Assembly (NCBI GenBank): GCA_944392945.1
Contig: CALXYJ010000003.1
Span: 93,189-133,188 of the forward strand
Source: an uncultured Clostridia bacterium
GTDB lineage: Bacteria > Bacillota > Clostridia > TANB77 > CAG-508
Direction: 5' to 3'
DNA length: 40,000 nucleotides
The notes beneath the pieces are model-generated. The model did not search any database. It was not told where the DNA came from and saw only the letters and a program-made list of their open reading frames with translations. The position numbers and the translations under genes are program-made. Below are positions 14,326 to 33,338 of the stretch, piece after piece. Within the stretch, counting starts at the first letter, position 1. The number at the start of each line of letters is the position of its first letter.

Positions 14326-14360
14326 ATTGCATTCTCCTTTTATTTATATACCTAATAGTA

Positions 14361-14397: not shown

Positions 14398-14403
14398 TAA
14401 AAA

Positions 14404-17087: not shown

Positions 17088-17170
17088 TCTTTTGTTCCTC
17101 CCCTGATTATTTTTTTATTATTTATTACGTCTAAATCTTATATATAATTCTCTATATATACAAGTTGCAC

Positions 17171-17199
17171 TTGCAACTTTTCTATTTTTTTGTTAAAAT
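17171..17199 (+). promoter_or_regulatory. Sigma-A type promoter for the Crp/Fnr-family gene
   Basis: TTGCAA (17171-17176), 17-nt spacer, then TGtTAAAAT (extended -10, hexamer at 17194-17199). It lies inside the track's TTG-start extension, which supports the ATG at 17217. Confidence 0.55.
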
Positions 17200-17216
17200 T
17201 TTTTCAGGTGATAAAA

Positions 17217-17852
17217 ATGAGGCTTCCATTTGAAGGATTAACGAAATTGCAAATTGGCAAACTCCTTGTGTTACTAGGCGTTCACAGGTATAAGTATACT
17301 AAAGGTGAAGAGATCTTACCTACTATAAAAAATGAAAATATTATTGGGATTATCTTAGAAGGATTTGCCCAAATTATGAATATAGAGTACAATGGGAACG
17401 AAATAGTACAGGAAAATCTTGGAAAAGATAGTGTGTTTGGTACAACTATTTCTGCAACAAATAGTGAAAACTGCCAAATAATCGCAAAAGAAGATACAGA
17501 AGTACTTGTTATAGATTATATAAAACTTATAAACCCAGAAAATTTAAATCATAATTATTTTAATATATTTTTAAGTAATTTATTTGATATTATTAATACA
17601 AAATTTAGAGAAACAAATGAACGAGTAAAAATACTAGAAAAAAAACAAATACGTGAAAAATTATTAAAATATTTTGAAATAGAACATAAAAAAAGTCGTT
17701 CTAAGAATATATATTTAGATTCTTCTTTTAAAGATTTAGCTGATTATCTAGCTATTGATAGATCAGCAATGTTTAGAGAACTAAAACATTTAAAAGATGA
17801 TAAGCTAATCGAAGTAAACGGCAGAAAAATACGAATTTTATACGAAATATAA
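17217..17852 (+). CDS. Crp/Fnr-family transcriptional regulator
   Basis: cNMP-binding-like beta-roll region plus C-terminal HTH (DLADYLAIDRSAMFRELKHLKDDKLI). ATG 17217 is preceded by AGGTGA. Confidence 0.75.
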   Translation: MRLPFEGLTKLQIGKLLVLLGVHRYKYTKGEEILPTIKNENIIGIILEGFAQIMNIEYNGNEIVQENLGKDSVFGTTISATNSENCQIIAKEDTEVLVIDYIKLINPENLNHNYFNIFLSNLFDIINTKFRETNERVKILEKKQIREKLLKYFEIEHKKSRSKNIYLDSSFKDLADYLAIDRSAMFRELKHLKDDKLIEVNGRKIRILYEI

Positions 17853-17878
17853 ACTTTAGGGACGTTCCTTAAAGTTCA
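17850..17878 (+). repeat. Hairpin repeat copy A (sense on +)
   Basis: TAAACTTTAGGGACGTTCCTTAAAGTTCA. Its first 3 nt are the TAA stop of the Crp/Fnr-family gene. It has one G>A change relative to the consensus. Confidence 0.85.
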
Positions 17879-17897
17879 AAGTGTGATCTTTAATATC

Positions 17898-17940
17898 AAA
17901 AAAATCCGTGGTAATACATGCGGATTTTCTTTTAATTTTT
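17898..17940 (+). terminator. Intrinsic (bidirectional-looking) terminator
   Basis: AAAAAAATCCG (17898-17908) / CGGATTTT (17921-17928), followed by CTTTTAATTTTT. Confidence 0.6.
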
Positions 17941-17988
17941 ACTATATAGACTAAAAAGCAATTTTTTGATTTTTAATAAATAAAATTT

Positions 17989-19083
17989 TTATTTTCCAAA
18001 ATATTTTTTTATTTCTTGCATCCTAGCAATTTGATCTACTTTAAAAGGGCATCTTTGGTTACAATGTCCACAGCTTATACAATCATAAGCTGTTTTTTCT
18101 AAATTTAAATAGTGGTCTTTTGCTAATTTATCACCTGCCACAGCTAAATCATAATATTTATTAATTAAACCAATATCAAGTTTCATAGGACATGGCATAC
18201 AGTGATTACAATAAACACATTTCCCTGTTACATTAGCTGGAGCGAATTCGCCAAGAATAGAATAATCCTTTTCCTCATCAGTTGCAGTATTATATTCTAA
18301 TATTTCCTTTAAATCATCCATTCCTCTTATTCCTGGAAGTACTGTTAATACACCTGGTCTATCTAAAGCATATTGTATACATTGTATTTTAGTTAATTTC
18401 TTACTAAATGGTGATGTTTTTTCGTCTAATAGTTGACCTCCTGAAAAAGGTTTCATAACAGATATTCCTATTCCTTCTGCCTCACATCTTTTATATAAAC
18501 TTGTTCTTTCGTCAGTTGTTCCATTGGCATAATCGCCATGATGATAATCATATCCCGGATTAATACTAAACATTACCATATCAACCAACTTTGTATCTAA
18601 TATTTCATTAATTAATTCTGGAGTGTGTGATGAAACTCCTATATGTTTTACGACTCCCTTTTCTTTTAATTCTAATATATAATCCAAAATACCATTTTTT
18701 ACATAACTTTTCCAGTCACTCTCTTCATCTAAACAATGTATAAATCCATAATCTATATAATCTGTTCGTAATTCTTTTAATTGCCATGCAATTGATATTT
18801 TTACTGTGTCTAAATTAGTTGTCCAACCATATGTACCTGTTTCATAATTTGCTCCAAAATGAATTTGATAAATTACTTTATCTCTTTCGTTTTCAAAAGC
18901 CTCTCCATAATACGAAAAACATTTGGCATCTCCTGCTGCTAAGTCGAAATAATTAATTCCATTTTCGTAAGCATATTTTAATGTTTGTATTGCTTCTTCT
19001 TTATTAGAATTTGATATAGAACTTGATCCTATACCTATAACACTTATCTTATCACCAGTTCTTTTATTAATACGATAATCCAT
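17989..19083 (-). CDS. Aldo/keto reductase with C-terminal 4Fe-4S ferredoxin-type domain
   Basis: AKR N-terminal region plus two Cys clusters, CVYCNHCMPCP and CISCGHCNQRCP. Confidence 0.8.
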   Translation of the reverse strand: MDYRINKRTGDKISVIGIGSSSISNSNKEEAIQTLKYAYENGINYFDLAAGDAKCFSYYGEAFENERDKVIYQIHFGANYETGTYGWTTNLDTVKISIAWQLKELRTDYIDYGFIHCLDEESDWKSYVKNGILDYILELKEKGVVKHIGVSSHTPELINEILDTKLVDMVMFSINPGYDYHHGDYANGTTDERTSLYKRCEAEGIGISVMKPFSGGQLLDEKTSPFSKKLTKIQCIQYALDRPGVLTVLPGIRGMDDLKEILEYNTATDEEKDYSILGEFAPANVTGKCVYCNHCMPCPMKLDIGLINKYYDLAVAGDKLAKDHYLNLEKTAYDCISCGHCNQRCPFKVDQIARMQEIKKYFGK

Positions 19084-19105
19084 ATATATTTCTCCTTTTC
19101 TTATT

Positions 19106-19990
19106 TTAGCTTTGAACTTTAAGGAACGTCCCTAAAAGTTCATTCCTAATAATCACTTTTCCATTAACTTCCATAATTGAATCTTCATTTATAATTTCTC
19201 CAACAGAATCAACAATTATTGTTCCTAATTTCGGATTCTTTATTGATAGTACATTTCCCTTTATATCTGCTTCTACTTCTGAATACTCGAAAGCTAAATC
19301 TGTATCTTCCATTGTACAATTTATTAATTTTAAATTCTTGCAATAGCAAAGTGGCTGTGTCCCAATAATTTTACAATTTATAAGTGTTAAACCTTCAGAA
19401 AACCAAGCTAAATATTCTCCCTTTACAATAGAATCCCTTACAGTTACATTTTTACTATGCCAGAAGGCATCTTTTGTATCTAATTTACAGTTTTTTATTT
19501 CTAAATTTTCCATATATTGAAAAGAATATTTCCCTTGAAATTCTATATTCTCTAATTTTACATTTTTGCTATCTAAAAAAATATATTCTGATGTTATTTT
19601 TGTGTCCTTCATATCTACATTATTACATTTCCAACCAAATTCCGGAGAAACTATTGTAGAATTTTTTATTATAGTATTATTACATTCTCTTAGCATTTTA
19701 ATTCCATTTAGTATGCATCCATTTATTAATCCATTATCAGAATACCATATTGGTGCTCTTGTTTTTTCATCAAAGTTAGAATCTATTAATTCATATTTTT
19801 TTGCATGCCATAACGGATATCTTAATGAAAATGTACAATTTTGTACTAAAATATTTCTGGTTTCCTTTAAAACAGATTCTCCATCTTGAGGTCCTGCAAA
19901 TGTACAATTTATAACCTCTGCATCTTTCAAATTATATAATGCTCTTTCTTCATCAAATGTTTTATTTTTAATTGTATTATTAATCTCCAT
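19106..19990 (-). CDS. DUF3737-like beta-helix repeat protein
   Basis: The N-terminal FDEERALYNLKDAEVINCTFAGPQDGESVLKE...YPLWH pattern matches what I recall for DUF3737. The last 12 codons (NELLGTFLKVQS) are read through hairpin repeat copy B and its immediate flanks. Confidence 0.55.
   Translation of the reverse strand: MEINNTIKNKTFDEERALYNLKDAEVINCTFAGPQDGESVLKETRNILVQNCTFSLRYPLWHAKKYELIDSNFDEKTRAPIWYSDNGLINGCILNGIKMLRECNNTIIKNSTIVSPEFGWKCNNVDMKDTKITSEYIFLDSKNVKLENIEFQGKYSFQYMENLEIKNCKLDTKDAFWHSKNVTVRDSIVKGEYLAWFSEGLTLINCKIIGTQPLCYCKNLKLINCTMEDTDLAFEYSEVEADIKGNVLSIKNPKLGTIIVDSVGEIINEDSIMEVNGKVIIRNELLGTFLKVQS
19113..19142 (-). repeat. Hairpin repeat copy B (sense on -)
   Basis: Minus strand reads TGAACTTTTAGGGACGTTCCTTAAAGTTCA. 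It is 30 nt, with one extra T relative to the consensus. Confidence 0.85.
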
Positions 19991-20053
19991 ATCTATTCCT
20001 TTCGTGTAAATTATTATATATTACTGTTATAATTAAATTTAACCTATATTTTT

Positions 20054-20632
20054 TTAATTTGCAAGCTCAAATCTAATATTTACACTTCCACTCCCAAGTT
20101 CAGATACAAACTCTTCTACATTATCTATTTTTCCTAAATTTGTATAGCTATATGAATTTTTAAAATCATCATAAAACACAACTAAACAATTATTACCATA
20201 TAATTTGATATCACCTGCATATATCATACTTGGAATGGTACTATTTGTTGTTAAACTTGAATCTAAATAATTATACTTTTCATTGGAATGTAAGTCACTC
20301 ATATTAAGCGTCATAGGGAAATTTTGTATTAATTCTTGTACAGTTTTGTTGTTTTCTAAAGTCGCAGTAAAATATTTATTATTTATTATTAAATTTATCC
20401 TTATTTCTTCACTATTCATTGTATTTATCTCCTTTTCTAAATCTGTTGTCTTTTCAGTAATATTATCTGCATTTATTACTTCATTTACTTCCAAGGCGGT
20501 TTCTTTATTTTCTTCTGAATTTACACCTATTGTTTCATTTGCTGTTTCATCACTAGCAGACTTAACAAATAAAACAATTATAACAATTACTATAACTAAT
20601 ATAAAAATTGAAATTAATATCTTTTTATTCAT
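20054..20632 (-). CDS. Cyclophilin-like-fold protein with N-terminal membrane anchor/signal
   Basis: C-terminal ~115 aa (FTATLENNKTVQELIQNFP...GDIKLYGNNCLVVFYDDF) resemble the cyclophilin-like family often found next to AKR genes. Hydrophobic N-terminus. Confidence 0.55.
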   Translation of the reverse strand: MNKKILISIFILVIVIVIIVLFVKSASDETANETIGVNSEENKETALEVNEVINADNITEKTTDLEKEINTMNSEEIRINLIINNKYFTATLENNKTVQELIQNFPMTLNMSDLHSNEKYNYLDSSLTTNSTIPSMIYAGDIKLYGNNCLVVFYDDFKNSYSYTNLGKIDNVEEFVSELGSGSVNIRFELAN

Positions 20633-20647
20633 TTTTTCTCCCTTCTA

Positions 20648-21607
20648 TTAATACCAATCATGTTTTTCATTACGATTAAGTTCTTCAATTTTTTTCATTT
20701 CTTCATCAGTCAGCTCAAAATCATATATTTGTGTATTTTCTTTTATATGTTCTGGATTACTTGAACCTGGAATTACTACTATTCCTCTTTGCAAATTCCA
20801 TCTTAAAATAACTTGTGCTGATGTTACATTATGAGCATTTGATATCTCTACAATTGTTTCATCATTTAAAAGTTCGGAAGTATATCCTCTTCCTCCAAAT
20901 GGATACCACCCTTGCATTACAATTCCTTTATTTTGAATATATGGTACTACGTCTAATTCTTGATAATATGGATGAATTTCATTTTGAACAAGAGCTGGCA
21001 TTATCTCTATCTGCGGTAAAAACTCTTCTAATTCTTCTATATACCAATTTGAAAGACCAATAGAATGGATTTTTCCCTGTTGTACATATTTTTCCATTGC
21101 CTTATATGCTTTTACATCATTAGTTCCTGGATGATGTAATAACATCATATCAATATAGCCTATATCTAATTTTCTTAAAGCCATTTCTATAGCTTCTTCT
21201 GGATTATCAAATTGACTAGGATATATTTTAGTAATAACAAATATTTCTTCTCTTGGAATTCCAGAGTCTCTGATTGCTCTTCCTACCTCTTCTTCATTAT
21301 TATACATATATGCTGTATCAATTAGCCTAACTCCAGAATTTAAAGCACTTATTATTGAGTCATAACATATATCTCCTGTTAAACTATATGTTCCTATGCC
21401 ATTTAAAGGCATTTCATACCCACTATTTAATGTTACAGTTTTCGTTTCAAAATTAAATTCTTTAGGACTATTATTACTATTAGTAATTATATTTTGCATT
21501 TTCATTTCGTTACCCATCTCACTTTTTATATTATTTTGATAAATTAAACATCCTATTATAATTATCGCAATAATTACAATAATTAGAACTAAAATTTTCT
21601 TTTCCAT
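20648..21607 (-). CDS. Aldo/keto reductase with N-terminal signal/lipobox-like sequence
   Basis: AKR motifs (LIDTAYMYNNEEEVG, LLHHPG, IGLSNW). N-terminus MEKKILVLIIVIIAIIIIGC has a lipobox-like IIGC. Confidence 0.75.
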   Translation of the reverse strand: MEKKILVLIIVIIAIIIIGCLIYQNNIKSEMGNEMKMQNIITNSNNSPKEFNFETKTVTLNSGYEMPLNGIGTYSLTGDICYDSIISALNSGVRLIDTAYMYNNEEEVGRAIRDSGIPREEIFVITKIYPSQFDNPEEAIEMALRKLDIGYIDMMLLHHPGTNDVKAYKAMEKYVQQGKIHSIGLSNWYIEELEEFLPQIEIMPALVQNEIHPYYQELDVVPYIQNKGIVMQGWYPFGGRGYTSELLNDETIVEISNAHNVTSAQVILRWNLQRGIVVIPGSSNPEHIKENTQIYDFELTDEEMKKIEELNRNEKHDWY

Positions 21608-21649
21608 AATCCCTTCCTTTCTTTAATTAATCTTACTTTTTTCGCGATT

Positions 21650-21889
21650 TTAATTTTCTTTTTTTAAGCTCATTATTAGATAATCTAATATGTCTATTTC
21701 TTTTTGATTTTTATGTATTGTCTTTAATAGCATTTCTCTATGTTTTCTAAGTAAATCATAGATTTTTTCAAACTCGTCCTTCTCTAATAAAGAAAAAAAT
21801 TCTTCTGTTAGCTTCTGATTACAACCTGCATCTTGCAAATTTTCAATTAGATATTCTTTTTTATTCTTATTATAAATCAAATTTATCAC
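21650..21889 (-). CDS. Small helical hypothetical protein
   Basis: 79 aa. The LRKHREMLLKTIHKNQKEIDILDYLI pattern recurs in small Firmicute proteins. Function unknown. Confidence 0.4.
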   Translation of the reverse strand: MINLIYNKNKKEYLIENLQDAGCNQKLTEEFFSLLEKDEFEKIYDLLRKHREMLLKTIHKNQKEIDILDYLIMSLKKEN

Positions 21890-22032
21890 CTTCTTAGTAT
21901 ATTATAATTATATTTTTTTATTGATAGCCAATACTTATTTTGAATGATTTATCATAGTCAAAAAGCATGGTAATATGATATAATGATTTTATTACTAATG
22001 CCAATAATGCTTTAAATTCAGGAGGATATATT

Positions 22033-22900
22033 ATGGAACTTAGAGTATTAAAATATTTTTTAGAAGTTGCAAGAGAAGAAATATTACTGCTGCAGCCGAA
22101 AGTTTACATATAACTCAACCAACTCTTTCTAAACAAATTATGGATTTAGAAAATGAACTTGGAAAAAAATTATTTATTAGAGAAAAAAGAAGAATCATAT
22201 TAACAGAAGATGGAATTCTTCTTCGTAAAAGAGCTAGCGAAATAATTGAATTAGTAGAAAAAACCGAATCTGAATTACAAAGAAATGATGAATTAATATT
22301 TGGAGATGTCTATATCGGATCTGCTGAAACCGATGGTATAAAAATAATTGCAAAATTATGTAAAAACTTACAAAATAAATATCCAAATATTCGTTATCAT
22401 CTCTTTAGTGGTAATAGTCAAGATGTTCTAGAAAAACTAGATAAAGGGCTTATTGATTTTGCAATTTTGTTTGAGCCCTCTGAACTTAAAAAATATAATT
22501 ATATTAAATTACCTGTATATAATAATTGAGGACTTTTAATGAGAACTGATAATTCTTTAGCCAAACATAAATATATAAGTCCTAAAGATCTTTTAAATAT
22601 TCCATTAATTTTTTCTAAACAAGCTCTTGATAATAATGAACTTACTGGTTGGTTTGGATATAATATAGAAAAATTAAATATAGTCGCAACATATAATTTA
22701 ATATATAATGCTTCTTTCTTTGTGGAAGAAGGGATTGGAAGTGCATTAACTTTAGATAATTTAGTAAATAATTCTAAACTATGTTTTAAACCTCTTGAAC
22801 CAAATTTAAAGTCAAATTTAGTTATGGTTTGGAAAAAATATCAAATATTTTCTAGAGCTTCGCAAACATTTTTGGATGAACTGCAAAATGAACTCCAGAG
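22033..22900 (+). pseudogene. LysR-family transcriptional regulator, disrupted
   Basis: MELRVLKYFLEVAREE, then the frame is lost. Observed GAAGAAATATT, where GAAGAAAATATT would give ...NITAAAESLHITQPTLSKQIMDLENELG. There is also an in-frame TGA at 22527-22529 where family members have Trp (PVYNN*GLLMR). The frame runs into repeat copy C without its own stop. Confidence 0.8.
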
Positions 22901-22915
22901 CGTCCCTAAAGTTCA
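22889..22915. repeat. Hairpin repeat copy C (degenerate, shared by convergent gene ends)
   Basis: Plus strand reads TGAACTCCAGAGCGTCCCTAAAGTTCA. The right 15 nt match the other copies exactly and the left arm has diverged. It contains the TAG (22906-22908) of the ABC remnant. Confidence 0.6.
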
Positions 22916-23193
22916 AATTGGCTATTATAAAGTTCTGCATAAGCTCCATTTTGTTCTAGTAATTTTTTATGATTTCCTTGCTCTATTATTGTTCCATTTT
23001 TCATAACAAAAATCATATCTGCATCTACAATTGTAGATAACCTATGTGCTATTACGAAACTTGTTCTATTAGCCATAAGTGTTTGCATGGCCTTTACAAT
23101 TTCTGTTTCTGTCCTTGTGTCGACACTTGAAGTTGCTTCATCTAATATCAACACACTAGGATTGCAAAGCATTACACGAGCAATCGTTAATTG
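22906..23193 (-). pseudogene. C-terminal remnant of an ABC exporter ATP-binding domain
   Basis: (Q)[24 protein letters not shown] (Walker B) ... [10 protein letters not shown] (H-loop). Everything upstream of about 23193 is replaced by intron sequence. Confidence 0.8.
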
Positions 23194-23914
23194 ATGCTAA
23201 AACTCGGTTAGCTGCTTTTTCACTTTTAACAAGTATTATACAATCATCTGCGTATCTTACAAAGTTTAGTCCTCTTACCTCTAGTTCCTTATCGAGTTCA
23301 TTTAACATTATATTGCTTAGTAATGGACTTAAATTTCCTCCTTGCGGTGTTCCTACTTCTGTTGCTTTTACTATTCCTTTTTCCATTACCCCTGCACTTA
23401 GATATTTTCTTATTAATGATACTACGTCTCCATCTTTTATTGTCTTTCCTATTATTGTTATTAATCTATCCTGATTTACTGTATCAAAGAACCTTTCTAA
23501 GTCAATGTCTACTATCCATTCATACCCATCGTTTACATATTCTAATGCCCTTATCACTGCTTGTTCACAACTTCTATTTGGTCTAAATCCAAAGCTATTA
23601 TCATTAAATTGCTTTTCAAATATTGGGCTTATTATCTGTACAATTGCTTGTTGTATTATTCTGTCTGTAACTGTTGGTATGCCTAGATTTCTCTTTTTGC
23701 CATTCTCTTTGGGTATTTGAACTCTTTTCACAGGTTGTGGTTTGTATCTTCTTTTCCTTATTTGATTTATTATTCTGTCTTTGTTTTCTTTTAGATAATC
23801 AATTTCTTCTTCTACTGTTATTCCGTCAACTCCTGCTACTCCTTTGTTTGATACTACTTTCTTGTATGCCTTGTTTAAATTGTTTGGGTTAAGTATTTCT
23901 TCTAAAAGTTCCAT
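23156..23914 (-). pseudogene. Group II intron reverse transcriptase, C-terminally truncated
   Basis: MELLEEILNPNNLNKAYKKVVSNKGVAGVDGITVEE...RYADDCIIL (YADD). The ORF leaves RT sequence after ...NRVLASI and ends in ABC-remnant DNA. No maturase (X) domain is present. Confidence 0.85.
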
Positions 23915-24445
23915 ATCTGTCTCCTCTTTTCCTTTCCGTAGATAGATAAATCATTGATTTTGAGTAACCATTTGAGATACGCTCATACTCTCCTCATTAA
24001 CACATTCTAACTATTATCTACCACTAAATTTTAGGTAGTGAAAACACTACAAATTGTTCAGTCCTTCAAAAAATTTTCTACTATGACCTCTGCTGACTTC
24101 TTGTGATAAACCTTTTCCGACCGTATTTTGTTCTATGTACTCCTCGTCGTTTCCTAACTACTCTACGTCCACAAGACCTCACAGGGTAAGTCGTTTAACT
24201 TTCCTCATTTACTCGCTTGATTTACTGCATAAGGTTACGTATATCTTTTGGGCTTTGACTTGTAATGTAGCCTTACCCTCTTATACAGCCTTAGTATCAA
24301 GTTTTTGTACATCGAGCCATGATTTTGATACACACTTCCTCTACTTTCATCTCACGATGAATAGCTTGTGTTTCTCTATGTGGTTGGCGATATCTACCTC
24401 CACTACGGACTTTCACCGACTAGCCAAACGACATGCCTGTCGCAC
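23190..24445 (-). mobile_element. Group II intron, 5' portion only (ribozyme domains I-III/IV + partial RT), IIC-like insertion context
   Basis: The minus strand starts GTGCGACAGGCATGTCG...GGTGAAAGTCCG at 24445. The segment is GC-richer and structured. No domain V/VI or 3' exon junction is present. Confidence 0.8.
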
Positions 24446-24450
24446 ATTTA

Positions 24451-24484
24451 AAAAAAGCACATTTCTATAAAAAATGTGCTTTTT
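24451..24484 (-). terminator. Intrinsic terminator of dagK, which is also the intron target
   Basis: AGCACATTT (24456-24464) / AAATGTGCT (24472-24480). On the minus strand it is followed by TTTTTTT, then AAAT, then the intron 5' end. Confidence 0.75.
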
Positions 24485-24554
24485 GATTTTCATATCTCCT
24501 ACTTTCCAATATTTATAAAATTAAACACTTTCGTATTTATTCTTCTAAAATTAA

Positions 24555-25457
24555 TTAACTACTTTTTGATGGCGGTACAAGATATTCTATACATTGCTTT
24601 TTAATATGTATTGTTACTTCATCTTTTGCTCCACCATATTCTCCATCTATTGAAAGATCTATTGGTTTATTACATTTTATGTTTAAATTTGATGTTTGCA
24701 AATAATATATACAATCATCTTCCAGCTTTCCTCTTAATACCTTTAATATTAGATTTATCATTTGCAAAAAGTTTTTAGGTTTTTTTACAAAAACTGCTTC
24801 AAATTTTCCATCATCCAATTTTATTAATTTCTTTTTAAACAAATTAAATCCACCTATATACTTTGAATTACTTATACTTCCATAAATAAATTCATCTTCT
24901 ATTTTTGTTTCTTCTGTTTGTATCTGTAATTTATATGTTTTATAATTAAATATATTTTTTATTCCATAAAGCACATATGCTAATCTTCCAATTTTTTGCT
25001 TTAACTTTTTGTTTGTTTTATAAGATGATTCAGAAAATAATCCAAATGCTACAACATAATTAAAAACTTTCTCATTTATTATACCTAAATCTACTTTTTT
25101 AGGACAATATCTACCTATATTTTTTGATAAATGCAATTTGTTAAATGAAATATTTAAGCTATTTGCAAAATCATTAGTAGTTCCACCTGGTATAAAACCT
25201 ACTGGAACATTTATATTTGCATAATTAATTCCTTGAACTGCTTGATTTAAAGTTCCATCTCCTCCACATATAACAATTATATCAAATTTTTCTTTACAAT
25301 TTTTTATAATGCTTCCTGCATCATTTTCGATTGATGTATATTTTATTTCTGTCTGGAAATTGGACTTTTCAAAATTTTCTTTAATTTGCGGTATATATTT
25401 TTCAATATTCCTTTTTCCTGATACTGGATTAACTATTATCAATACTCTATAATTCAT
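24555..25457 (-). CDS. dagK: Diacylglycerol-kinase-family lipid kinase (DagK/YegS type)
   Basis: 300 aa. NPVSGK N-terminus and the GGDGTLN motif. Confidence 0.8.
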   Translation of the reverse strand: MNYRVLIIVNPVSGKRNIEKYIPQIKENFEKSNFQTEIKYTSIENDAGSIIKNCKEKFDIIVICGGDGTLNQAVQGINYANINVPVGFIPGGTTNDFANSLNISFNKLHLSKNIGRYCPKKVDLGIINEKVFNYVVAFGLFSESSYKTNKKLKQKIGRLAYVLYGIKNIFNYKTYKLQIQTEETKIEDEFIYGSISNSKYIGGFNLFKKKLIKLDDGKFEAVFVKKPKNFLQMINLILKVLRGKLEDDCIYYLQTSNLNIKCNKPIDLSIDGEYGGAKDEVTIHIKKQCIEYLVPPSKSS

Positions 25458-25490
25458 TTATTTATACATTCCTTTTTCATTAATTTACTT

Positions 25491-25898: not shown

Positions 25899-25913
25899 AA
25901 TCTTACTTCTCCT

Positions 25914-26510
25914 TTAACACATAAATCCTGGTCTACAACAACAATTACAAATTGTATCTGCAACACACCACCAAAAGCATATGTTCTGCATATCAAATGG
26001 TCTTCCATATGTTCTGCTTCTTTCTTTATATACATTTCCTCCATTTTGTATCTGATTATATAATTCTTGATATCTTAAATTATTTGGTTCCATTTGTACT
26101 GCTATCTTTGCATGATTTAAAGCTGTTATCCTATTATTAGTATAGTAATTTGCAATACTACTTAAATAATACCATTCAGCTGTTTTATTTTGAATTTCAG
26201 AAAGTACTCTTAATGCTTCCCTATACATTCCAACTTGTATAAAATGACTTGCTACTTGGTAGAGATTTGCACCTTCATTATTATTGTATGAATCATTTTG
26301 ACTATTTGAATATCCATTATACTGATTCACATTACCATTTTTTATTTGATCATATGCTTCATTTATCTCTCTCATTTTTCTTGCAGCCTCTTCATCTCCT
26401 GGATGTAAATCTGGATGATATTTTTTTACTAATTTTCTATAAGCTTTTGTGACTTCTTCGTCAGTTGCTCCATATGATAGTCCTAATATTTCGTAAGGAT
26501 TTTGTATCAT
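25914..26510 (-). CDS. J-domain protein with TPR-like middle region and Cys-rich C-terminal tail
   Basis: YEILGL...KKYHPD (HPD motif). C-terminal [23 protein letters not shown] contains 7 Cys. Confidence 0.75.
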
Positions 26511-27314
26511 CTATTTTTCTCCCTTCTTTTTGTGTATTTCATATTTTGTCCATATACCTGAATACAGAATATTCTCGATTATTTTACTTGAAATGTTTAG
26601 TTCTTTGTAATTTTCCATGCAATCTGATAAAAGCAAATTAAGCATATCATCAAATTCTGTTTTTGAGTTTGTAATTAATGGATTATATTTTTTCTTTTTT
26701 ATATCTTTTTCAAAATCTATACAAGCATCCAATATATAGATAAACTTTCCTAGTGAATCCCCAAATTTTCTTAATTTTTCTTCGTGTTCATCATCATATG
26801 GTACAAATATTTCTCCAAATAATTTGCCACAACAATTTGCTGATAAATCTGGATTTATGATATTTTTAGTTTCTAAATCATTTAATTCTTTTAAACTATT
26901 TTGTACAATTTCAGCTTTTTTAGGATATTGCTTACACACTTTTTTAAAACTCTTTTTTATTAGTTTTGCATAGCAATTAGCAAATACATTTTTATCATCT
27001 TGCCAATCATCAATTAAATTATAATATGATAATAAAATATTCATATCTGCTACATAATCTACAAATTTGCCCTCAATATAAGTATGTTTATTAATAGGAT
27101 GCATCATACATCTACATTCTAATTTTTTGTTTTTTTCCTTATAAACTTCATTTAATAATAAAATTAAAAAAGTCATATCATAATTTAATGTCATCATACT
27201 TATATTATTGTGATTTTTTTGTAATGCTTTACATAATCCGCAATAACATTCTCTATAGTATTTTTTATCTATATCATCTAATAAATTGGGATTTGTAACT
27301 ATATTTCCAAGCAT
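26511..27314 (-). CDS. DUF5685-like protein of unknown function
   Basis: Start moved to MLGNIV (ATG at 27314) behind GGAGGA. Contains CYCGLC and CRC cysteine motifs and the Asp-rich IDDWQDD. Its stop (26511-26513) abuts the ATG of the J-domain gene (26508-26510). Confidence 0.5.
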   Translation of the reverse strand: MLGNIVTNPNLLDDIDKKYYRECYCGLCKALQKNHNNISMMTLNYDMTFLILLLNEVYKEKNKKLECRCMMHPINKHTYIEGKFVDYVADMNILLSYYNLIDDWQDDKNVFANCYAKLIKKSFKKVCKQYPKKAEIVQNSLKELNDLETKNIINPDLSANCCGKLFGEIFVPYDDEHEEKLRKFGDSLGKFIYILDACIDFEKDIKKKKYNPLITNSKTEFDDMLNLLLSDCMENYKELNISSKIIENILYSGIWTKYEIHKKKGEK

Positions 27315-27330
27315 TTTTGATCCTCCATCT

Positions 27331-27744
27331 TTATAATTTTGCATTTTCTAATATTTTGTTACATATTTTTATAAACTGATCTTTTTCATTAACAGAAATA
27401 CCTTGGAATAATTGTTCTAATAATTGATTTTGTTCTTTTTCAAAAATTTGTATGATTTTTTCTGCCTTTTTAGTTAATTTTAAATGGAATTTTTTCTTAT
27501 CATTATTATCTTGTATCCTTTTAATATATTTCTTATTTCTTAATGTTTCTACTGAGTATGATACATGTGATTTGGAAATCATAAGATTTTCTACAATATT
27601 TGTTGCAATATCTAATTTTTCATTTTTATATAAAAATAATAGTACTCTTATTTCATTTGAATTTAAATCAGTTTCTTTTGAAACCTTTATAAATAAATTA
27701 TCAGCAACTTTTTTTAAAACCTGTATATCTTCCAGTAAAGTCAT
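27331..27744 (-). CDS. MarR-family transcriptional regulator
   Basis: Start at MTLLEDI (ATG 27742-27744) behind AAAGGAGGAAG. Winged-helix region NEIRVLLFLYKNEKLDIATNIVENLMISKSHVSYSVETLRNKKYIKR. Confidence 0.75.
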   Translation of the reverse strand: MTLLEDIQVLKKVADNLFIKVSKETDLNSNEIRVLLFLYKNEKLDIATNIVENLMISKSHVSYSVETLRNKKYIKRIQDNNDKKKFHLKLTKKAEKIIQIFEKEQNQLLEQLFQGISVNEKDQFIKICNKILENAKL

Positions 27745-27781
27745 GCTTCCTCCTTTTGTTCGTTTTTGAACTAATGATAAT

Positions 27782-27810
27782 AGTTTACTTGCTTTTATAG
27801 TATAAGTCAA
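27782..27810 (-). promoter_or_regulatory. Candidate sigma-A promoter of the marR operon
   Basis: Minus strand reads TTGACT (27810-27805), 17-nt spacer, TAAACT (27787-27782). It lies inside the ORF-track N-terminal extension, which argues against that extension. Confidence 0.45.
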
Positions 27811-27884
27811 CAGTTGGTATGAATATTTCACATAAGTTTCACATAAAAATAGAATTCGTATCACGTTATATAAAATAATAATTA

Positions 27885-27926
27885 TAAAAAAGAGCTACTT
27901 AAATCAACTTTAAATAGCTCTTTTAT
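27885..27926 (-). terminator. Intrinsic terminator after pheT
   Basis: AAGAGCTA (27889-27896) / TAGCTCTT (27915-27922). A T-run follows on the minus strand. Confidence 0.6.
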
Positions 27927-27969
27927 TTGATATTCTATATTGTTAAATTTTAAGTTTATGTCTACTCCT

Positions 27970-27998
27970 TGAACTTTAAGTAACGTCCTAAAAGTTCA
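27970..27998 (-). repeat. Hairpin repeat copy D (sense on -)
   Basis: Minus strand reads TGAACTTTTAGGACGTTACTTAAAGTTCA and begins immediately after the pheT TAA (27999-28001). The inner stem is degenerate. Confidence 0.75.
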
Positions 27999-30422
27999 TT
28001 AGTCTCTTAATTTAGCTCCACATCTCTTATCTAGAGTCTTTAGTATGCTGTTCATTTTTTCATTTATTTGCTCAGATGTCATAGTAGTTCCTTCATTTAG
28101 TATTTTTACTTTTAATGTCACTGATTTCTTTCCTTCTGGAATTTGATTTCCTCTATATTCATCTACAAATTCGATTTCTTTTACCTTAGATTGAATACTT
28201 TCTTCAATCTCTTTCCAAGAGACTTGCTCATCGACTATAATTGATAAATCTTTTTCTACTAATGGTAGTTCTGGCAATCTTTCATATTCATTTGTTCTTG
28301 AAGCATATGGAACAAATTTATCTGTATTAATTTCAAACATTGCTACATTAGTTCTTTTTATTTTTGTATCTGCCATTACTTTTACAGAAACTAATCCTAA
28401 TGTTCCAATTACTTCATTACCTTTAACTACATTTAAGTAAGCATTAACATCCGCCCAATATGGTTTCTCCATTTTTTCTAATTTAAGATCTTCCATATGG
28501 CAATATCTAGACATATTTTCGATTACTCCTTTTGCTTCATAGAATATTTCTTTTGCATCTTTTCCAACTATGCATCCTGTTAAATAATTCTTTTGAATTG
28601 GCAAAATTTCATCTTCTGAAGATGGTCTATAATCACCTTTTTCATAAACTTCTTCACAATCAAATAATCTAAATTCATCATAATATCTTAAGTTTTTAGA
28701 AACTGCTTCTAACATTCCTGGTATTAAAGAACTTCTTAAATAGGCTAAATCTGGTGCTGGTGGAGTCGCTAATTTTAAGCATTTATCCATATTTGTTCCA
28801 ACTGCCTTAATATATTTTTCCTCAATCCATGGATATGTAAAAATTTCATAAAATCCACATCTAAATGCTAAATATTCTTTAATTCTTCTTTCTAATAAAA
28901 CGTCATTTTGTTTTACAGAATGTTCAAAAGTTATAGTAATAGGTTTAGCCTCAAAACTATCAAAACTTAATATTCTTGCAATGTCTCCCATAACATCATC
29001 TTTAATTGTTACATCACCTGTTGATCTCCATGTTGGAACTATTACATCATATTCCCCATTATGTAATGATATTTCATATCCAAGAGCTGTTAAAATTTGT
29101 TCAATTTTTTCTTGTGGTATTTTCTTTCCTAATCTTGTATCTAAGAATTCTTCACTTACTTTTATTTCATTCTTCTTAGTTTCGTTTGGGTAAACATCTG
29201 CATATTTAATTATTTTGCTATCTGGAAATACTTCTTTAATTAATCTTAATGCTAAATTTAATCCTTCATCTACCCTTTGTGTATCAACACCTTTTTCAAA
29301 TCTCATTGAAGCTTCTGTTTTTTCTGCAAATTTTTTATCTGTTTGTCTAACTGAATCTGCTGAGAAGTTTGCTACCTCTAATACAACTCCCTTTGTATCT
29401 GGTAATATAGAATCCTTCTTACCACCCTTAATTCCTGCTAATGCCATTGCATCATTTTCATCACATATTACTAAATCATCTGTTGAAAGTTCAATAAAAT
29501 TATTATCTAATAATAATAATTTTTCATTTTCTTTAGCATTCCTTACTATTATTTTTTCTCCACTTACATGTGTTTTGTCAAAAGCATGAAGTGGCTGACC
29601 TACTGCCATCATTACATAATTTGTAATATCTACAATAGCATTTATTGGTCTTTGACCTACTTTTGATAATAATGATTGCATCCACATTGGAGATGGTTTT
29701 TCATATATACCATCTATTTCTACTGCTACATATCTATTACATTTAGTTGTATCTTTTATTTCTACACTGTATTCTGGTAACTTAGGTAATTCGTATTTTG
29801 GTAGTTCTTTTAATGGTGCATCATATATAGCTGATAATTCCCTTGCAATTCCATAATGTCCCCATAAATCTGGTCTATTAGATAAAGATTTATTATCTAT
29901 TTCTAATACTGTATCATTCATTCCAAATAAATCAGCAACACTATCTCCTGGTTTGCAATCAAATCCTTTTAAATCAACTATTTCTTCTTCACCTTCGTTT
30001 GGGAAGAAATCGCTTAAATATACTTCTGTTGAAGCACAAATCATTCCATAGGAGCTTTCTCCTCTCATTTTTGTTTTTGTTATTTTAACAGGTTCTCCTT
30101 GACCATGCCAAACAACTTCTGCACCTGGTTTTGATACTACTACATATTCTCCAGCATAAAGATTAGAACCACCACATACAATTTGTACAGGTTCTTCTTC
30201 TCCAATATCTACCATACATATTCTTAATTTATCAGCATTTGGATGTTCTTTTATTTCTAAAATTTTTCCTACAACTATGTCATGAAATTTTTTAGCAATA
30301 TTTAGGGTTTCTTCTACTTCTACTGTTCTTAATGTCATATCATAGGCAATTTGTTCATCTGTTAAGCCTTCAGGTAAATCAACATATTTTCTAATTAAAT
30401 TTAATGATACTTTCATATTCAA
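27999..30422 (-). CDS. pheT: Phenylalanine--tRNA ligase beta subunit
   Basis: 807 aa. N-terminal tRNA-binding domain (HPNADKLRICMVDIG), B3/4 and B5 regions. Directly downstream of pheS. Confidence 0.92.
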   Translation of the reverse strand: MNMKVSLNLIRKYVDLPEGLTDEQIAYDMTLRTVEVEETLNIAKKFHDIVVGKILEIKEHPNADKLRICMVDIGEEEPVQIVCGGSNLYAGEYVVVSKPGAEVVWHGQGEPVKITKTKMRGESSYGMICASTEVYLSDFFPNEGEEEIVDLKGFDCKPGDSVADLFGMNDTVLEIDNKSLSNRPDLWGHYGIARELSAIYDAPLKELPKYELPKLPEYSVEIKDTTKCNRYVAVEIDGIYEKPSPMWMQSLLSKVGQRPINAIVDITNYVMMAVGQPLHAFDKTHVSGEKIIVRNAKENEKLLLLDNNFIELSTDDLVICDENDAMALAGIKGGKKDSILPDTKGVVLEVANFSADSVRQTDKKFAEKTEASMRFEKGVDTQRVDEGLNLALRLIKEVFPDSKIIKYADVYPNETKKNEIKVSEEFLDTRLGKKIPQEKIEQILTALGYEISLHNGEYDVIVPTWRSTGDVTIKDDVMGDIARILSFDSFEAKPITITFEHSVKQNDVLLERRIKEYLAFRCGFYEIFTYPWIEEKYIKAVGTNMDKCLKLATPPAPDLAYLRSSLIPGMLEAVSKNLRYYDEFRLFDCEEVYEKGDYRPSSEDEILPIQKNYLTGCIVGKDAKEIFYEAKGVIENMSRYCHMEDLKLEKMEKPYWADVNAYLNVVKGNEVIGTLGLVSVKVMADTKIKRTNVAMFEINTDKFVPYASRTNEYERLPELPLVEKDLSIIVDEQVSWKEIEESIQSKVKEIEFVDEYRGNQIPEGKKSVTLKVKILNEGTTMTSEQINEKMNSILKTLDKRCGAKLRD

Positions 30423-30430
30423 AATCCTTT

Positions 30431-31468
30431 CTAATTAAATTGTTTTAAAAATCTTAAATCTCCACTATGGAATAAACGTACATCATCTACTCCATATCTC
30501 ATCATTACTAATCTGTCTAATCCAATATTAATATAGAATCCTGTCCATTCGTCTGGATTTAATCCTGCTGATTTTAATACATTTGGATGAATTACACCAC
30601 CTGGCATAACTTCTATCCATCCATTATGATTACATACTTTACATCCTTTTCCACCACATACTAAACATTCCATATCTATTTCATATCCTGGTTCAGTAAA
30701 TGGAAAAAATCCTTCTCTCATTCTTGTTTTTATTTTTCTTCCAAAAACTTTTTCTAATATTGTTTGAATCATGACCATACCAGATGAAAAAGATATATCT
30801 TTATCAACTATTAATGCTTCATATTGGAAGAATGCTCTTTCATGTCTAGCATCAGTTGTTTCATTTCTATACACTTCTCCTGGATATACAAATCTTGCTG
30901 GAGCTCCATGCTTTAGTAAATATCTTACAGAACCACCTGTTAAATGTGGTCTTAAGCATAATCTTTCTGCACCTTCTTTATCTTCTGTTCCTTCAAGCCA
31001 ATAAGTATCCATAGATTGACGTGCAGGATGGTTTTTAGCAAAATTCAAATTATCAAATGCATATTTTTCACTACTTATATCATCTTCGCTATATACTTCA
31101 AAACCTAAAGATAAAAATGCATCATTTAAGTCATGTTTCATTTGGGTTATTGGGTGAAGTGCTCCTCCACTTACTTTTTTTCCAGGAATGGTTAAATCAA
31201 TTGGTTCATCTAATACACTCATAGAAGCAATAATTTCTTCTTCTTTTTCTTGTAAATTACCTAAAAAAGTATTTTTTATTTCTGTTGCCAACATTCCAAT
31301 TGTCTTTTTCTCTTCTACTGATAAATCTTTCATAGTTTTTAGAACTTCTGATAATTCGCTTTTTTTACCAGTTAATTCTTTTCTAACTTCTTCAAGTTCA
31401 GCAATAGTTTTTACGTCTTTAATTTTTTCCAAACCTTTTGTTTTGATTTCTTCTAATCTCTCTTTCAT
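30431..31468 (-). CDS. pheS: Phenylalanine--tRNA ligase alpha subunit
   Basis: Class II core motifs (HPARQSMDTYWL, FRNETTDARH, GFFPFTEPG). Start moved to MKERLEEIK (ATG 31466-31468), giving the usual ~345 aa. Confidence 0.9.
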   Translation of the reverse strand: MKERLEEIKTKGLEKIKDVKTIAELEEVRKELTGKKSELSEVLKTMKDLSVEEKKTIGMLATEIKNTFLGNLQEKEEEIIASMSVLDEPIDLTIPGKKVSGGALHPITQMKHDLNDAFLSLGFEVYSEDDISSEKYAFDNLNFAKNHPARQSMDTYWLEGTEDKEGAERLCLRPHLTGGSVRYLLKHGAPARFVYPGEVYRNETTDARHERAFFQYEALIVDKDISFSSGMVMIQTILEKVFGRKIKTRMREGFFPFTEPGYEIDMECLVCGGKGCKVCNHNGWIEVMPGGVIHPNVLKSAGLNPDEWTGFYINIGLDRLVMMRYGVDDVRLFHSGDLRFLKQFN

Positions 31469-31603
31469 ACGCTCTATCCTTTCTAATATAGTAATTAGGA
31501 GACGGTCTTTTTTATTTTTAGATAGGAATATTATGACCGTCAATTCTCCCTATTTAATATGGCTTTTTATTTTGAATGCTTACTCGATCATTTTTTTAGC
31601 AAT

Positions 31604-31780
31604 CAAAAAACGAGCAATCTTCCATAAAGGACGATTTGCTCGTGGTACCACCTTTTTTTATAGTATTTCTACTACCTCATTACAGATTAACGCTCTTACA
31701 CGATTTGACTCCATTATTGAAATTCGTTAATTTGTCTTTCTATTGTAGCTTCCAGTCTATGACTACAATTCCCTGATTAG
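31604..31780 (-). promoter_or_regulatory. T-box leader (tRNA-Phe sensing) with terminator/antiterminator
   Basis: The minus strand contains the T-box sequence AAAGGTGGTACCACGAGCAAATCG, which overlaps the 5' half of the terminator CGAGCAAATCGTCC...GGAAGATTGCTCG + TTTTTT. Stem I distal hairpin is TTGTAG...CTACAA (31743-31768). A UUC triplet followed by A (31719-31721) sits on the 3' side of stem I. Confidence 0.8.
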
Positions 31781-32011
31781 ATTTACATACTAACTACTTT
31801 GATAATTTCTTCGTCAACATTTATTAATCTACTAAATTATATTGCCTTTTTTCCTATTTGTCAAATATTTATACTAAATTTGTTGCTTAGTAATACGTAA
31901 AATAAGACTTTATATAAATTACTATTAATCTATTACATCATAATCATCAATTACATCCTCACCATTATTTGGATTACATTTTAGGTATTTTGTCAAAATG
32001 GATACACCATA

Positions 32012-32046
32012 AAGGGCAGGTAGTTTTTGGCGAACTATCTGCCCTT
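32012..32046 (-). terminator. GC-rich hairpin after the flavin reductase gene
   Basis: AAGGGCAGGTAGTT / AACTATCTGCCCTT, a 14-bp stem with one mismatch. The U-tract on the minus strand is weak. Confidence 0.5.
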
Positions 32047-32058
32047 TAATTTATATTG

Positions 32059-32625
32059 CTATTTTTTTAATTTTAAACCATCTTTAAAAGCTTCTCCTAC
32101 TCTTTCAGTAACTTTATAGTATCCATGAGTATATGGATCAAATGCAATAGCATTAACTAACTCGATATCAACATTTTCTCCATTCATTACACTTTCATCA
32201 GCTGTTACATTTACCACTTTTCCTATTACTCCACAACCATATTCGTCATCTTGATATTCTATAAATTCACATTCAAAACAAATAGGAAATTCATTTATAA
32301 TCGGTGCATCTACATTTTCTGATTTTGTAGCTGTTAATCCACTATTTTCAAATTTATTAGGAGTATTATTTCCTGATACAACTCCAAAATAATCTGCTTC
32401 AACAACATGTTTGCTATCAGCAATGCTTACTGTAAATGCTTTTCTTTTTTTAATATTTTTAACAGTCTTATGTGTTTCTGTTAAATTTAATATTACTTGA
32501 TTTCTACTTAACATAGTTCCCCATGCTGCATTCATAACATCAATACTTCCATCTTCGTTATATGTTGCTATCATTAATACAGGCATTGGAAATATTGCTT
32601 CAGTAGTTTTAATATTTTTTCTCAT
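32059..32625 (-). CDS. Flavin reductase-like (FMN-binding split-barrel) protein
   Basis: 188 aa. The N-terminal PMPVLMIATYNEDGSIDVMNAAW pattern is typical of the flavin reductase domain family. Confidence 0.7.
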   Translation of the reverse strand: MRKNIKTTEAIFPMPVLMIATYNEDGSIDVMNAAWGTMLSRNQVILNLTETHKTVKNIKKRKAFTVSIADSKHVVEADYFGVVSGNNTPNKFENSGLTATKSENVDAPIINEFPICFECEFIEYQDDEYGCGVIGKVVNVTADESVMNGENVDIELVNAIAFDPYTHGYYKVTERVGEAFKDGLKLKK

Positions 32626-32787
32626 TTTAAATTCCTCCTATTAAAATTTTGTAAATATTTCCGTTAGTACATTCCAACCTTCAGCTTTCGTTCTTAATAT
32701 ATAAATTCATATATTATTGACGATATAGTCTTCTATAGTAAATCTAAAATTGAATATTCATTATTATTTCCATACTTTCTTAAAATA

Positions 32788-32816
32788 TTTACAACTGCAT
32801 TATATAATGCTATAAT
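32788..32816 (+). promoter_or_regulatory. hxlR-family gene promoter with embedded palindromic operator candidate
   Basis: TTTACA (32788-32793), 17-nt spacer, TATAAT (32811-32816). The spacer contains the perfect 14-bp palindrome GCATTATATAATGC (32797-32810). Confidence 0.55.
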
Positions 32817-32852
32817 TCCTTTGTAAAGTACTAACCTAAAGGAGAGTGTAAC

Positions 32853-33188
32853 ATGAAAGAATGTATAAAACCTAATATGAATTTTGAAGAAACTGGATTT
32901 GCATATAGTATGTCTTTAATATCTGGTAAATATAAATTATCTATTTTATATTCTTTAGCATTTTATGGTCCATTTAGATATAATGAACTAAAAAGATTTT
33001 TAGATCCGATTTCTTTTAAAACATTAACCTCTAATTTAAAAGATTTAGAAAACAATAAATTAATTATAAGAAAAGAATATCATGAAATACCGCCTAAAGT
33101 AGAATACTATTTATCCAATAAAGGAAAATCTTTAATGCCAATATTAGATCAATTATGCGATTGGGGTCAAAAAAATAAACAAGTTTAA
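32853..33188 (+). CDS. HxlR-family winged-helix transcriptional regulator
   Basis: 111 aa. Pattern SLISGKYKLSILYSL...GPFRYNELKRFL..ISFKTLTSNLKDLENNKLIIRKEYHEIPPKVEYYLSNKG. Confidence 0.8.
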   Translation: MKECIKPNMNFEETGFAYSMSLISGKYKLSILYSLAFYGPFRYNELKRFLDPISFKTLTSNLKDLENNKLIIRKEYHEIPPKVEYYLSNKGKSLMPILDQLCDWGQKNKQV

Positions 33189-33209
33189 ATGATCTTGTTT
33201 ATTTTTTAT
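33171..33209 (+). terminator. Intrinsic terminator overlapping the end of the hxlR-family gene
   Basis: AATAAACAAG (33174-33183) / CTTGTTTATT (33194-33203) followed by TTTTT. An A-run upstream makes it look bidirectional. Confidence 0.6.
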
Positions 33210-33309
33210 TAAAATTCATCTACTATATTCAATATATCTTTATCTATTGTTTCTATTATGATTTTATTTAAATCCCATTTATTTTAGCAATAAGTGTTTA
33301 TTCTATCTT

Positions 33310-33338
33310 TGAACTTTAAGGAACGTCCCTAAAGTTCA
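33310..33338 (-). repeat. Hairpin repeat copy E (sense on -, consensus copy)
   Basis: Minus strand reads TGAACTTTAGGGACGTTCCTTAAAGTTCA. Its TAG (33329-33331) is the stop codon of the sirtuin gene. Confidence 0.9.

Follow-up and report, generated by a model that had tools for sequence, protein, structure and literature searches.

A REP-like hairpin repeat of gut Clostridia often lies over gene stop codons and flanks RAYT-class transposase genes

REP/REPIN (BIME)-RAYT systems, or REPtrons, couple repetitive extragenic palindromes (REPs) with a REP-associated tyrosine transposase (RAYT), and to our knowledge such systems have been worked out almost entirely in Proteobacteria. Enzymes that bear a helix-turn-helix (HTH) domain make up the largest RAYT class, for which TIRYT (Di Nocera et al. 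2013, PMC3733652), RAYT Group 1 (Bertels et al. 2017, PMC5581495) and TnpA-Y1 subclass 2.1 (Quentin et al. 2018, PMC6006769) are equivalent names. Two surveys of REPs and terminal inverted repeats (TIRs) in prokaryotes do not mention Firmicutes (PMC3733652; PMC6006769), and Group 1 has been reported in Clostridia (PMC5581495). No REP-like hairpins are described near subclass 2.1 genes (PMC6006769), and the 16-mers flanking Group 1 genes number only about 12 per replicon (PMC5581495). Here we describe a 29-nt hairpin present five times in a 40,000-nt stretch (the window) of contig CALXYJ010000003.1 from an uncultured Clostridia bacterium. The original prediction, made from the letters of this window, took the hairpin for a REP-type and possibly mobile palindrome located at the 3' ends of genes, and this is borne out by a large family, inverted doublets, a RAYT gene and sites that are filled in one genome and empty in another. 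We conclude that the hairpins are probably non-autonomous mobile palindromes of the REP/REPIN type, at home in low-GC uncultured gut Clostridia, that spread as RAYT-class repeats do and came to lie on stop codons by tolerated insertion.

A species-level genome collection was scanned with a 22-nt degenerate core of the element, and matches were listed as eight-kilobase contig tiles (L numbers below). The matches listed place the element in at least 105 tiles from at least 15 metagenome-assembled genomes (MAGs), all of them from the guts of animals and humans and classed as uncultured Clostridia, Clostridium or Clostridiaceae. The search of relatives for the consensus, proposed with the original prediction, thus returned a family: a blastn-short census of the listed tiles and the window (835 kb) counted at least 239 copies, 140 of them identical to the master sequence TGAACTTTAGGGACGTTCCTTAAAGTTCA. 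One MAG carries at least 64 copies in 214 kb. The listed tile closest to the window, L059, is 85% identical to it across nrdD. The element pattern was unmatched in viral contigs, the part of the window that holds copies A and B (17000-20000) matched no plasmid record, and a literature search for the sequence returned unrelated primers only. At gathering score, the Rfam matches of the window were confined to group II intron domains, and the element had none; around copy E, permissive thresholds gave nothing at E ≤1. With no Rfam match and no trace of the sequence in the literature searched, the hairpin is still assignable to no named family. The conserved 29-mer is usable as a lineage marker in metagenomes.

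Across the family, 94% of cells are paired on the named structure and five pairs show double changes, and all slid controls are far worse. The stem is AT-rich, with G-C at 3 of its 13 pairs. With the commonest variants (A9>G and C19>T), Watson-Crick pairs become G.U or G.T pairs on the sense strand only, and in a subfamily (TGCAA...TTGCA) two stem pairs are altered on both sides. The invariant block of the family is an internal one, TTTAGGGACG. Stop codons on the sense strand begin at position 1 (TGA), position 8 (TAG) and position 21 (TAA), one per frame; the antisense strand likewise has one per reading frame, and the palindrome closes any frame in at most eight codons. The G.U pair of the stem had been read as a pointer to function in RNA. 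The strand asymmetry is real, but as an argument for RNA it is not decisive, since a G.T wobble in single-stranded DNA is equally strand-specific. Y1/RAYT enzymes act on one strand of single-stranded DNA.

A RAYT-class gene lies between inverted copies of the element in five genomes (L039, L017, L002, L016 and L106), so that the suggested search for a RAYT/IS200-type TnpA was answered in the genomes of relatives. In L039, an open reading frame (ORF) of 276 aa (3326-4156) sits between two inverted "double copies" of the element. Its homologues in three other MAGs (L017, L002 and L016; 59-64% identical) have a sense copy 45-60 nt before the start codon and an antisense copy at or just past the stop, and the transposase is flanked in the same tail-to-tail topology as the doublets described below. 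Two MAGs, of two species, have the same gene downstream of the transposase. The L039 protein scores 40.5 bits against Pfam Y1_Tnp, above the cut-off, and its best NCBIfam model is REP_Tyr_transpos (65 bits, with 17 bits for IS200). The enzyme family comprises 2008 proteins at E ≤1e-5, some named RayT by JGI, in which H60, H62, Y120, N124 and P125 are invariant; these give HUH and Y---NP, the signature reported for class 2 (TnpA-REP-like) enzymes (PMC6006769). The AlphaFold model (pLDDT 85) has as its top structural match 4ER8, the E. coli TnpA-REP with a REP hairpin (E 2.6e-6, TM 0.72), with ISDra2 and IS608 TnpA ranking beneath it. Sequence searches of PDB, with the single sequence and with a profile, gave no usable match (4ER8 at E 0.8). 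The proteins are 253-277 aa long, and their C-terminal third is modelled by AlphaFold as a helical HTH-like domain, whose profile match to a DeoR-type HTH is weak (E 0.027); precomputed Pfam annotations of the homologues include one HTH_23 and some Sigma70_r4. The enzyme resembles TIRYT/TnpA-Y1 subclass 2.1, an assignment made by domain layout only.

The genome represented by L106 is more distant, and its homologue is 50% identical. This gene is flanked by a related palindrome, TGAAATTTAGGGACGCTTGAAAAATTTCA, in which TTTAGGGACG is kept and the outer stem is changed on both sides. Since both partners have changed with the internal block retained, enzyme and palindrome diverge together, which is the REPtron pattern (PMC6006769; PMC3733652).

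Several further features accompany the transposase gene. All five genomes have a G-run motif (GTGGGGGC/T AAAATTT, TGGGGGACAAAATTT) between the upstream copy and the transposase start (L017 3882-3960, L002 2535-2580, L016 2535-2600, L106 1440-1500), which could serve as a promoter or be bound by the HTH of the enzyme itself. A nitronate-monooxygenase/FabK-like gene stands beside the transposase in L039 (1897-2979) and in L106 (341-1396), where the transposases are about 50% identical and the arrangement differs; the shared neighbor could be chance or an old shared location. In the MAG CALXJQ01, two direct copies with 47 nt between them form a composite repeat of about 105 nt (L039 3041-3146 and 4189-4296; L101 2399-2860; L091 7650-7955; L105 6070-6460). 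The transposase gene has this composite as its inverted ends, and the composite also brackets a non-coding unit of about 245 bp, recurring in several contigs, that looks like a transposase-less derivative of the gene-carrying element.

Position and orientation of the copies relative to genes are not random. Of the 239 copies, 129 have a co-oriented gene ending on their 5' side. The stop lies inside the element in 50 of these (TAG 27, TGA 13, TAA 10), about 21% of all 239, and at most 15 nt upstream in 42 more, which puts 92 of the 129 over a stop or within 15 nt of one. Only 8 copies give a convergent gene its stop, versus the 50 co-oriented cases. In 85 of the 239 copies the 5' side instead looks towards the beginning of an opposite-strand gene, at a distance of 11-31 nt in about half the cases, against the ribosome-binding site. 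The label of a 3'-end element therefore suits the gene-end copies and does not suit these 85, which are antisense just upstream of a gene start and stand there because of the tail-to-tail doublet architecture. The 3' side is mostly at least 40 nt from any gene. Among neighbors no more than 200 nt apart, 57 pairs are tail-to-tail, none is head-to-head and 22 are direct, most of the direct pairs being the one composite repeat of a single MAG. Spacers of the tail-to-tail pairs measure 7-100 nt, and one pair overlaps by 9 nt. There are 91 singletons, and those between co-directional genes are sense in 32 cases versus antisense in 14.

The element had been said to lack a following U-tract. This is true of every copy in the window, where AAAG or AAGG follows, and not of the family, in which 85 of 239 copies have a T-rich 3' flank versus about 17 expected from base composition. 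A T-run as a selected terminator feature was nevertheless rejected, as the share of T-rich tails at gene ends (34%) and at gene starts (25%) does not discriminate.

In sixteen copies, part of the 5' arm (TGAACTT or TGAACTTTAGG) is repeated in tandem immediately upstream of the element, and the mirror-image arrangement on the 3' side was never seen. Examples are L040 4540-4552, L057 3058-3070, L014 988-998 and L006, which has three tandem TTGAACT units ahead of its copy near 5700. These duplications may be the footprint of a cleavage or joining step.

Orthologous loci were found both with and without the element, and the native C-termini lack the element-derived tail. Flanks were compared by blastn (E ≤1e-8), giving 10 pairs; a free-end-gap global alignment was discarded after about 1,470 spurious 70% matches in AT-rich DNA. 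At the 3' end of nrdG, the L059 gene ends ...CEL* inside a copy, and the window gene, whose tail differs, has no copy and is followed by an ordinary terminator hairpin. The nrdD-nrdG junction holds a doublet in L012 and a four-copy cluster in L101, starting 2-6 nt past the TAA; it is empty in the window, with 5 nt between the genes, and has a plain terminator in L054. At the 3' end of the DUF3737 gene, L108 (85% identical) has a decayed relic right after the native TAA and L109 has nothing. Ten sites are filled in two different species (82-92% identical). At ten shared sites the elements are 96% identical versus 82% for the coding flanks, a contrast that was set aside as evidence of selection, the tiles having been chosen by exact match.

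At two orthologous sites, an ordinary terminator hairpin is found where the element of the relatives is lacking (window 14325-14404, L059 6166-6240, L054 760-1000). The element and conventional terminators would thus appear to take each other's place.

The window itself has a G+C content of 26-30%, and its genes are mostly on the minus strand. Searching it with the predicted consensus at ≤3 mismatches found copies A, D and E, with 0 matches expected from 100 shuffles, and copies B and C were recovered by a repeat finder and blastn-short. The family covariance model, run over the whole window with filters off, reported exactly five sites, A to E, and none else above noise, and the five predicted positions are thereby confirmed by pattern search, repeat finder, blastn and covariance model (Table 1). 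The model favors one strand over the other by 17-27 bits for A (+) and for B, D and E (-). For copy C, whose orientation had been called ambiguous, it does so by 3 bits only (16.4 on the minus versus 13.0 on the plus strand). Each sense strand forms the 13-bp hairpin that was predicted, with folding energies of -11 to -15.6 kcal/mol (z -2.2 to -5.9), well below those of shuffled controls. All window copies are singletons, four of them good (A, B, D and E) and one decayed: C has an intact 5' half (TGAACTTTAGGGACG), a mutated 3' half and an exact TTTAGGGACG on the minus strand. Copy B stands where the DUF3737 gene meets the following gene of its operon. A terminator scan of the window picks other hairpins than the element, including those past copies A and D, which had been anticipated at about 20 and 44 nt.

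Table 1. Copies of the hairpin element in the window, the genes that meet them, and nearby terminator-like hairpins.
Feature	Positions	Strand	Description
Copy A	17850..17878	+	TAAACTTTAGGGACGTTCCTTAAAGTTCA; 1 mismatch to master; singleton; -11 kcal/mol, z -3.9; 50 bits
Copy B	19113..19142	-	30 nt, one extra T in 5' arm; 43.8 bits
Copy C	22889..22915	- (weak)	Decayed, 27 nt; -15.2 kcal/mol on minus strand; 16.4 bits
Copy D	27970..27998	-	3 mismatches to master; 41.7 bits
Copy E	33310..33338	-	Identical to family master; -15.6 kcal/mol, z -5.9; 54.1 bits
Terminator-like hairpin with T-run	17901..17928	+	22 nt past copy A
Terminator-like hairpin with T-run	27888..27924	-	45 nt past copy D
Crp/Fnr-type regulator gene	17190..17852	+	Stop 17850-17852 is positions 1-3 of copy A; HTH_Crp_2, cNMP_binding
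DUF3737 gene	19106..19990	-	Reads through copy B; last 12 residues NELLGTFLKVQS element-encoded
ABC-transporter ATPase remnant, C-terminal 88 aa	22906..23172	-	Ends ...FEL*, TAG inside copy C; ...HRLSTI motifs
LysR-family gene, 3' fragment	22539..23006	+	Crosses copy C from the opposite side
pheT	27999..30422	-	TAA 27999-28001 directly abuts first base of copy D
Sir2-family gene	33329..34183	-	Last three codons and TAG stop (AAT GAA CTT TAG) from copy E

Checked against gene and element coordinates, the relations of all five copies to stop codons are as originally described. One detail was wrong: a G>A change in copy A had been credited with creating the TAA stop, but the consensus TGA at positions 1-3 is already in frame, and the change swaps TGA for TAA. 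None of 119 DUF3737 homologues ends in EL, their native ends being ...KVIIRKN and ...IIRKKV, and the last 12 residues of the window protein are therefore encoded by copy B. None of 120 Sir2-family homologues ends in NEL, and the closest relatives are 3-4 residues longer; judged by this comparison, the "NEL" tail of the window sirtuin is element-encoded. The repeat can set the C-termini and stops of about one fifth of neighboring genes, a point of relevance to genome annotators and builders of protein families, who will meet spurious "...NEL" tails and read-through extensions again and again.

At copy C, a LysR-family regulator is split into two plus-strand ORFs (22140-22529 and 22539-23006), with its stop lost inside the decayed copy. 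The Pfam profile of the 3' fragment ends at aa 119, exactly at ...NEL, and the native end would therefore be ...NEL; an intact antisense copy would have given LysR the end NEL*, and across the decayed copy the ORF runs 34 codons further. A group II intron occupies 23156-24484 on the minus strand, with Rfam domains D1-D4 at 24061-24361 and a reverse transcriptase (RT) ORF at 23156-23914. Its 5' end is just downstream of a terminator-like hairpin (24452-24484) that follows the gene at 24555-25457; a start just past a terminator hairpin is typical of class C introns. The RT ORF, truncated to 252 aa, overlaps the 88-aa ABC ATPase remnant, so that a deletion probably joined the intron and the ABC gene. 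The split LysR gene, the ABC remnant and the truncated intron mark a decaying stretch of the genome.

In the mechanism that we propose, a RAYT-class Y1 HUH transposase encoded on the chromosome and bearing a C-terminal HTH would spread, homogenize and maintain the repeats. By analogy with the behavior of IS200/IS605 and RAYT enzymes (PMC6006769), it would recognize the sense strand as a single-stranded DNA hairpin, with the G.T wobble pair and the invariant TTTAGGGACG block as recognition features; recognition of a single strand would explain why this asymmetry is conserved. The unit of spread would be the tail-to-tail doublet or a RAYT-containing parent. As the outer borders of a doublet are the 5' ends of its repeats, each repeat would abut the gene boundary that flanks the insertion, and singletons, including the five of the window, would be lone or surviving doublet halves. 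Insertions in or just past the last codons would be tolerated, and copies would come to lie on stop codons because the intergenic spacers of these genomes are very short and the palindrome stops every frame on both strands. The gene would acquire an element-encoded stop and tail (...EL*, or a longer one after a frameshift, as at copy B). As a side effect, a 13-bp hairpin would stand at the stop or a few nucleotides from it, where it may protect the mRNA 3' end, terminate transcription if a T-run follows, or slow translation termination.

A number of observations weigh against this reading. No transposition event was directly seen, there is no transposase gene within the 40-kb window, and the filled sites common to different species indicate that many copies are old. 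The NCBIfam RAYT score of the enzyme is below the equivalog cut-off (65 versus 80). The canonical REP 5' GT[AG]G tag is lacking, the 5' border of the family being N-TGAAC with N variable and no GTAG or GTGG. The logo of that border is A/T-rich with no clear target motif, and the preference for gene ends is accordingly explained by tolerance rather than demonstrated as a choice of target. Apparent conservation and density are inflated, as loci were chosen by exact 22-nt match, and the layout counts approximate genes as simple ORFs of at least 100 aa.

The alternative that deserves the most attention, though we consider it unlikely, is that the element is above all a functional RNA 3' module kept by selection, mobility having been only its route there; the sense-strand hairpin would then end transcripts, protect them, or tune the termination of translation at an overlapped stop. 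The sense bias at gene ends (50 co-oriented versus 8 convergent stops; singletons 32 sense versus 14 antisense) would be expected of such a module, but it follows equally from the tail-to-tail layout combined with a single-stranded DNA substrate, and the 85 antisense copies beside gene starts do not fit it. The common variants retain G.U pairing on the sense strand only. T-rich 3' flanks exceed expectation (85 of 239 versus about 17), yet they are nearly as common at gene starts (25%) as at gene ends (34%), the window copies have no U-tract, and A and D retain terminators of their own. Two comparisons, window versus L059 and L054 versus L012/L101, show a terminator at the empty site, and 92 of the 129 gene-end copies lie over a stop or within 15 nt of it, a position in which, according to a passage of PMC12306157 that cites the finding, E. 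coli REPs are reported to stall ribosomes. The higher identity of orthologous copies (96% versus 82% in coding flanks) would also agree with selection, but that figure is biased by the choice of loci, and the copy in L108 decays freely. A bolder version, which we regard as quite improbable, would make the RAYT-REP pair part of normal gene expression: the palindrome would be a 3'-end signal for a large share of genes, replacing terminators, writing the final residues and stops of many proteins, and putting a hairpin within the footprint of the ribosome as it terminates. A single mobile sequence, kept uniform by a domesticated transposase, would in this way couple transcription termination, translation termination and mRNA decay.

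It is very improbable that the palindrome is a double-stranded DNA site, for a dimeric regulator, a nucleoid protein or DNA uptake, that was multiplied by selection. The near-perfect 29-bp palindrome, its extreme uniformity across species and an associated protein with an HTH domain are compatible with such a site, but where symmetry is broken, the break is conserved and has a direction (G.T at 10/20, the loop, A9>G and C19>T), compensatory stem changes keep pairing and not sequence, copies lie at gene ends and in coding tails rather than at promoters, only one of two inverted arrangements occurs, and the flanked gene encodes an HUH Y1 enzyme. Recombination sites or targets of another mobile system are, in our estimate, hardly credible, and the three candidates were rejected on gene context, intron position and enzyme scores. 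Integron attC sites are imperfect palindromes at cassette 3' ends that are used as single strands, but the copies here flank core genes (pheT, nrdD/nrdG) on both strands, kilobases apart, with no cassette array and no integrase. The group II intron 250 nt from copy C brings class C intron targets to mind; its 5' end abuts a different hairpin (24452-24484), however, and copy C lies beyond its truncated 3' side. The flanked enzyme is related to the TnpA of IS200/IS605, whose ends the copies might be, but it scores as RAYT and not as IS200 (65 versus 17 bits) with 4ER8 as top structural match, it has inverted copies on its flanks and no direct left and right ends, and the same neighbor gene recurs in two species. 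We therefore retain the REP/REPIN-type mobile palindrome as the best explanation and compare it below with described repeats.

Intrinsic (Rho-independent) terminators are likewise stem-loops just past a gene, and about a third of the family copies do continue into a T-run. The element differs from them in its AT-rich stem, in the window copies without a U-tract, and in the separate terminators present at A and D. Rickettsia palindromic elements (RPEs), Neisseria Correia elements and ERIC are also short repeats in or near genes that alter protein termini and form RNA hairpins at 3' ends; they differ in sequence and size. Dependence on DDE-type transposition is assumed for Correia and ERIC elements. 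RPE-4 and RPE-6 of Rickettsia have been filed among CGTC repeats, with no dedicated transposase found (Di Nocera et al. 2013, PMC3733652).

The TIRYT systems, or "TIRtrons" (PMC3733652), are alike in having a RAYT-like enzyme with a C-terminal HTH extension, described as Bac_DnaA_C, HTH_23 or HTH_28-like (PMC3733652; PMC6006769). Their flanking inverted repeats carry GGGGWSAS, and some TIR families are self-complementary and moderately repeated (PMC3733652). The copies flanking the L039 gene read TTTGGGGACGTTC, in which GGGGACGT fits 6 of 8 GGGGWSAS positions; the master has AGGGACGT. The difference from TIRYT/subclass 2.1 is that the flanking repeat here is a compact 29-nt hairpin and highly amplified.

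A second repeat family was seen in the same MAGs, with 12 copies in 10 tiles, often right beside the main element (L040 4583-4649 and 4660-4725; also L025, L034, L053, L056, L065, L091, L092, L095 and L105). Its copies fold into a hairpin whose loop, GGGGACGGAGGAAAA, is conserved and whose two stem arms vary together (TTGCCAAA...TGGCAA or GGTGTTTTT...AAAAACACC). GGGGACG occurs in both families, and the second one matches 7 of the 8 positions of GGGGWSAS. No Rfam family corresponds to it, permissive thresholds yielding only generic long-hairpin (miRNA-like) noise.

The REPtrons of Enterobacteria and Pseudomonas remain the closest parallel. Both they and the present system have a short imperfect palindrome in hundreds of copies, as singletons and inverted doublets, that is enriched past gene ends; in both, a Y1 HUH gene lies between inverted copies, each enzyme has its matching palindrome, and copies and gene are inherited vertically. 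The top structural match of the enzyme is itself a REPtron protein, E. coli TnpA-REP (4ER8). The present family differs in having the invariant internal TTTAGGGACG in place of a 5' GT[AG]G tag, an AT-rich host (27% GC) among the Clostridia, an enzyme with a C-terminal HTH and tail-to-tail doublets only, and in that one fifth of its copies overlap a gene and supply its stop. The element is thus an undescribed REP-like family rather than a canonical REP, working like REP/REPIN with RAYT, and it links an enzyme of the HTH-bearing Group 1/subclass 2.1/"TIRYT" kind to a compact, highly amplified hairpin, which provides that class with a concrete candidate substrate.

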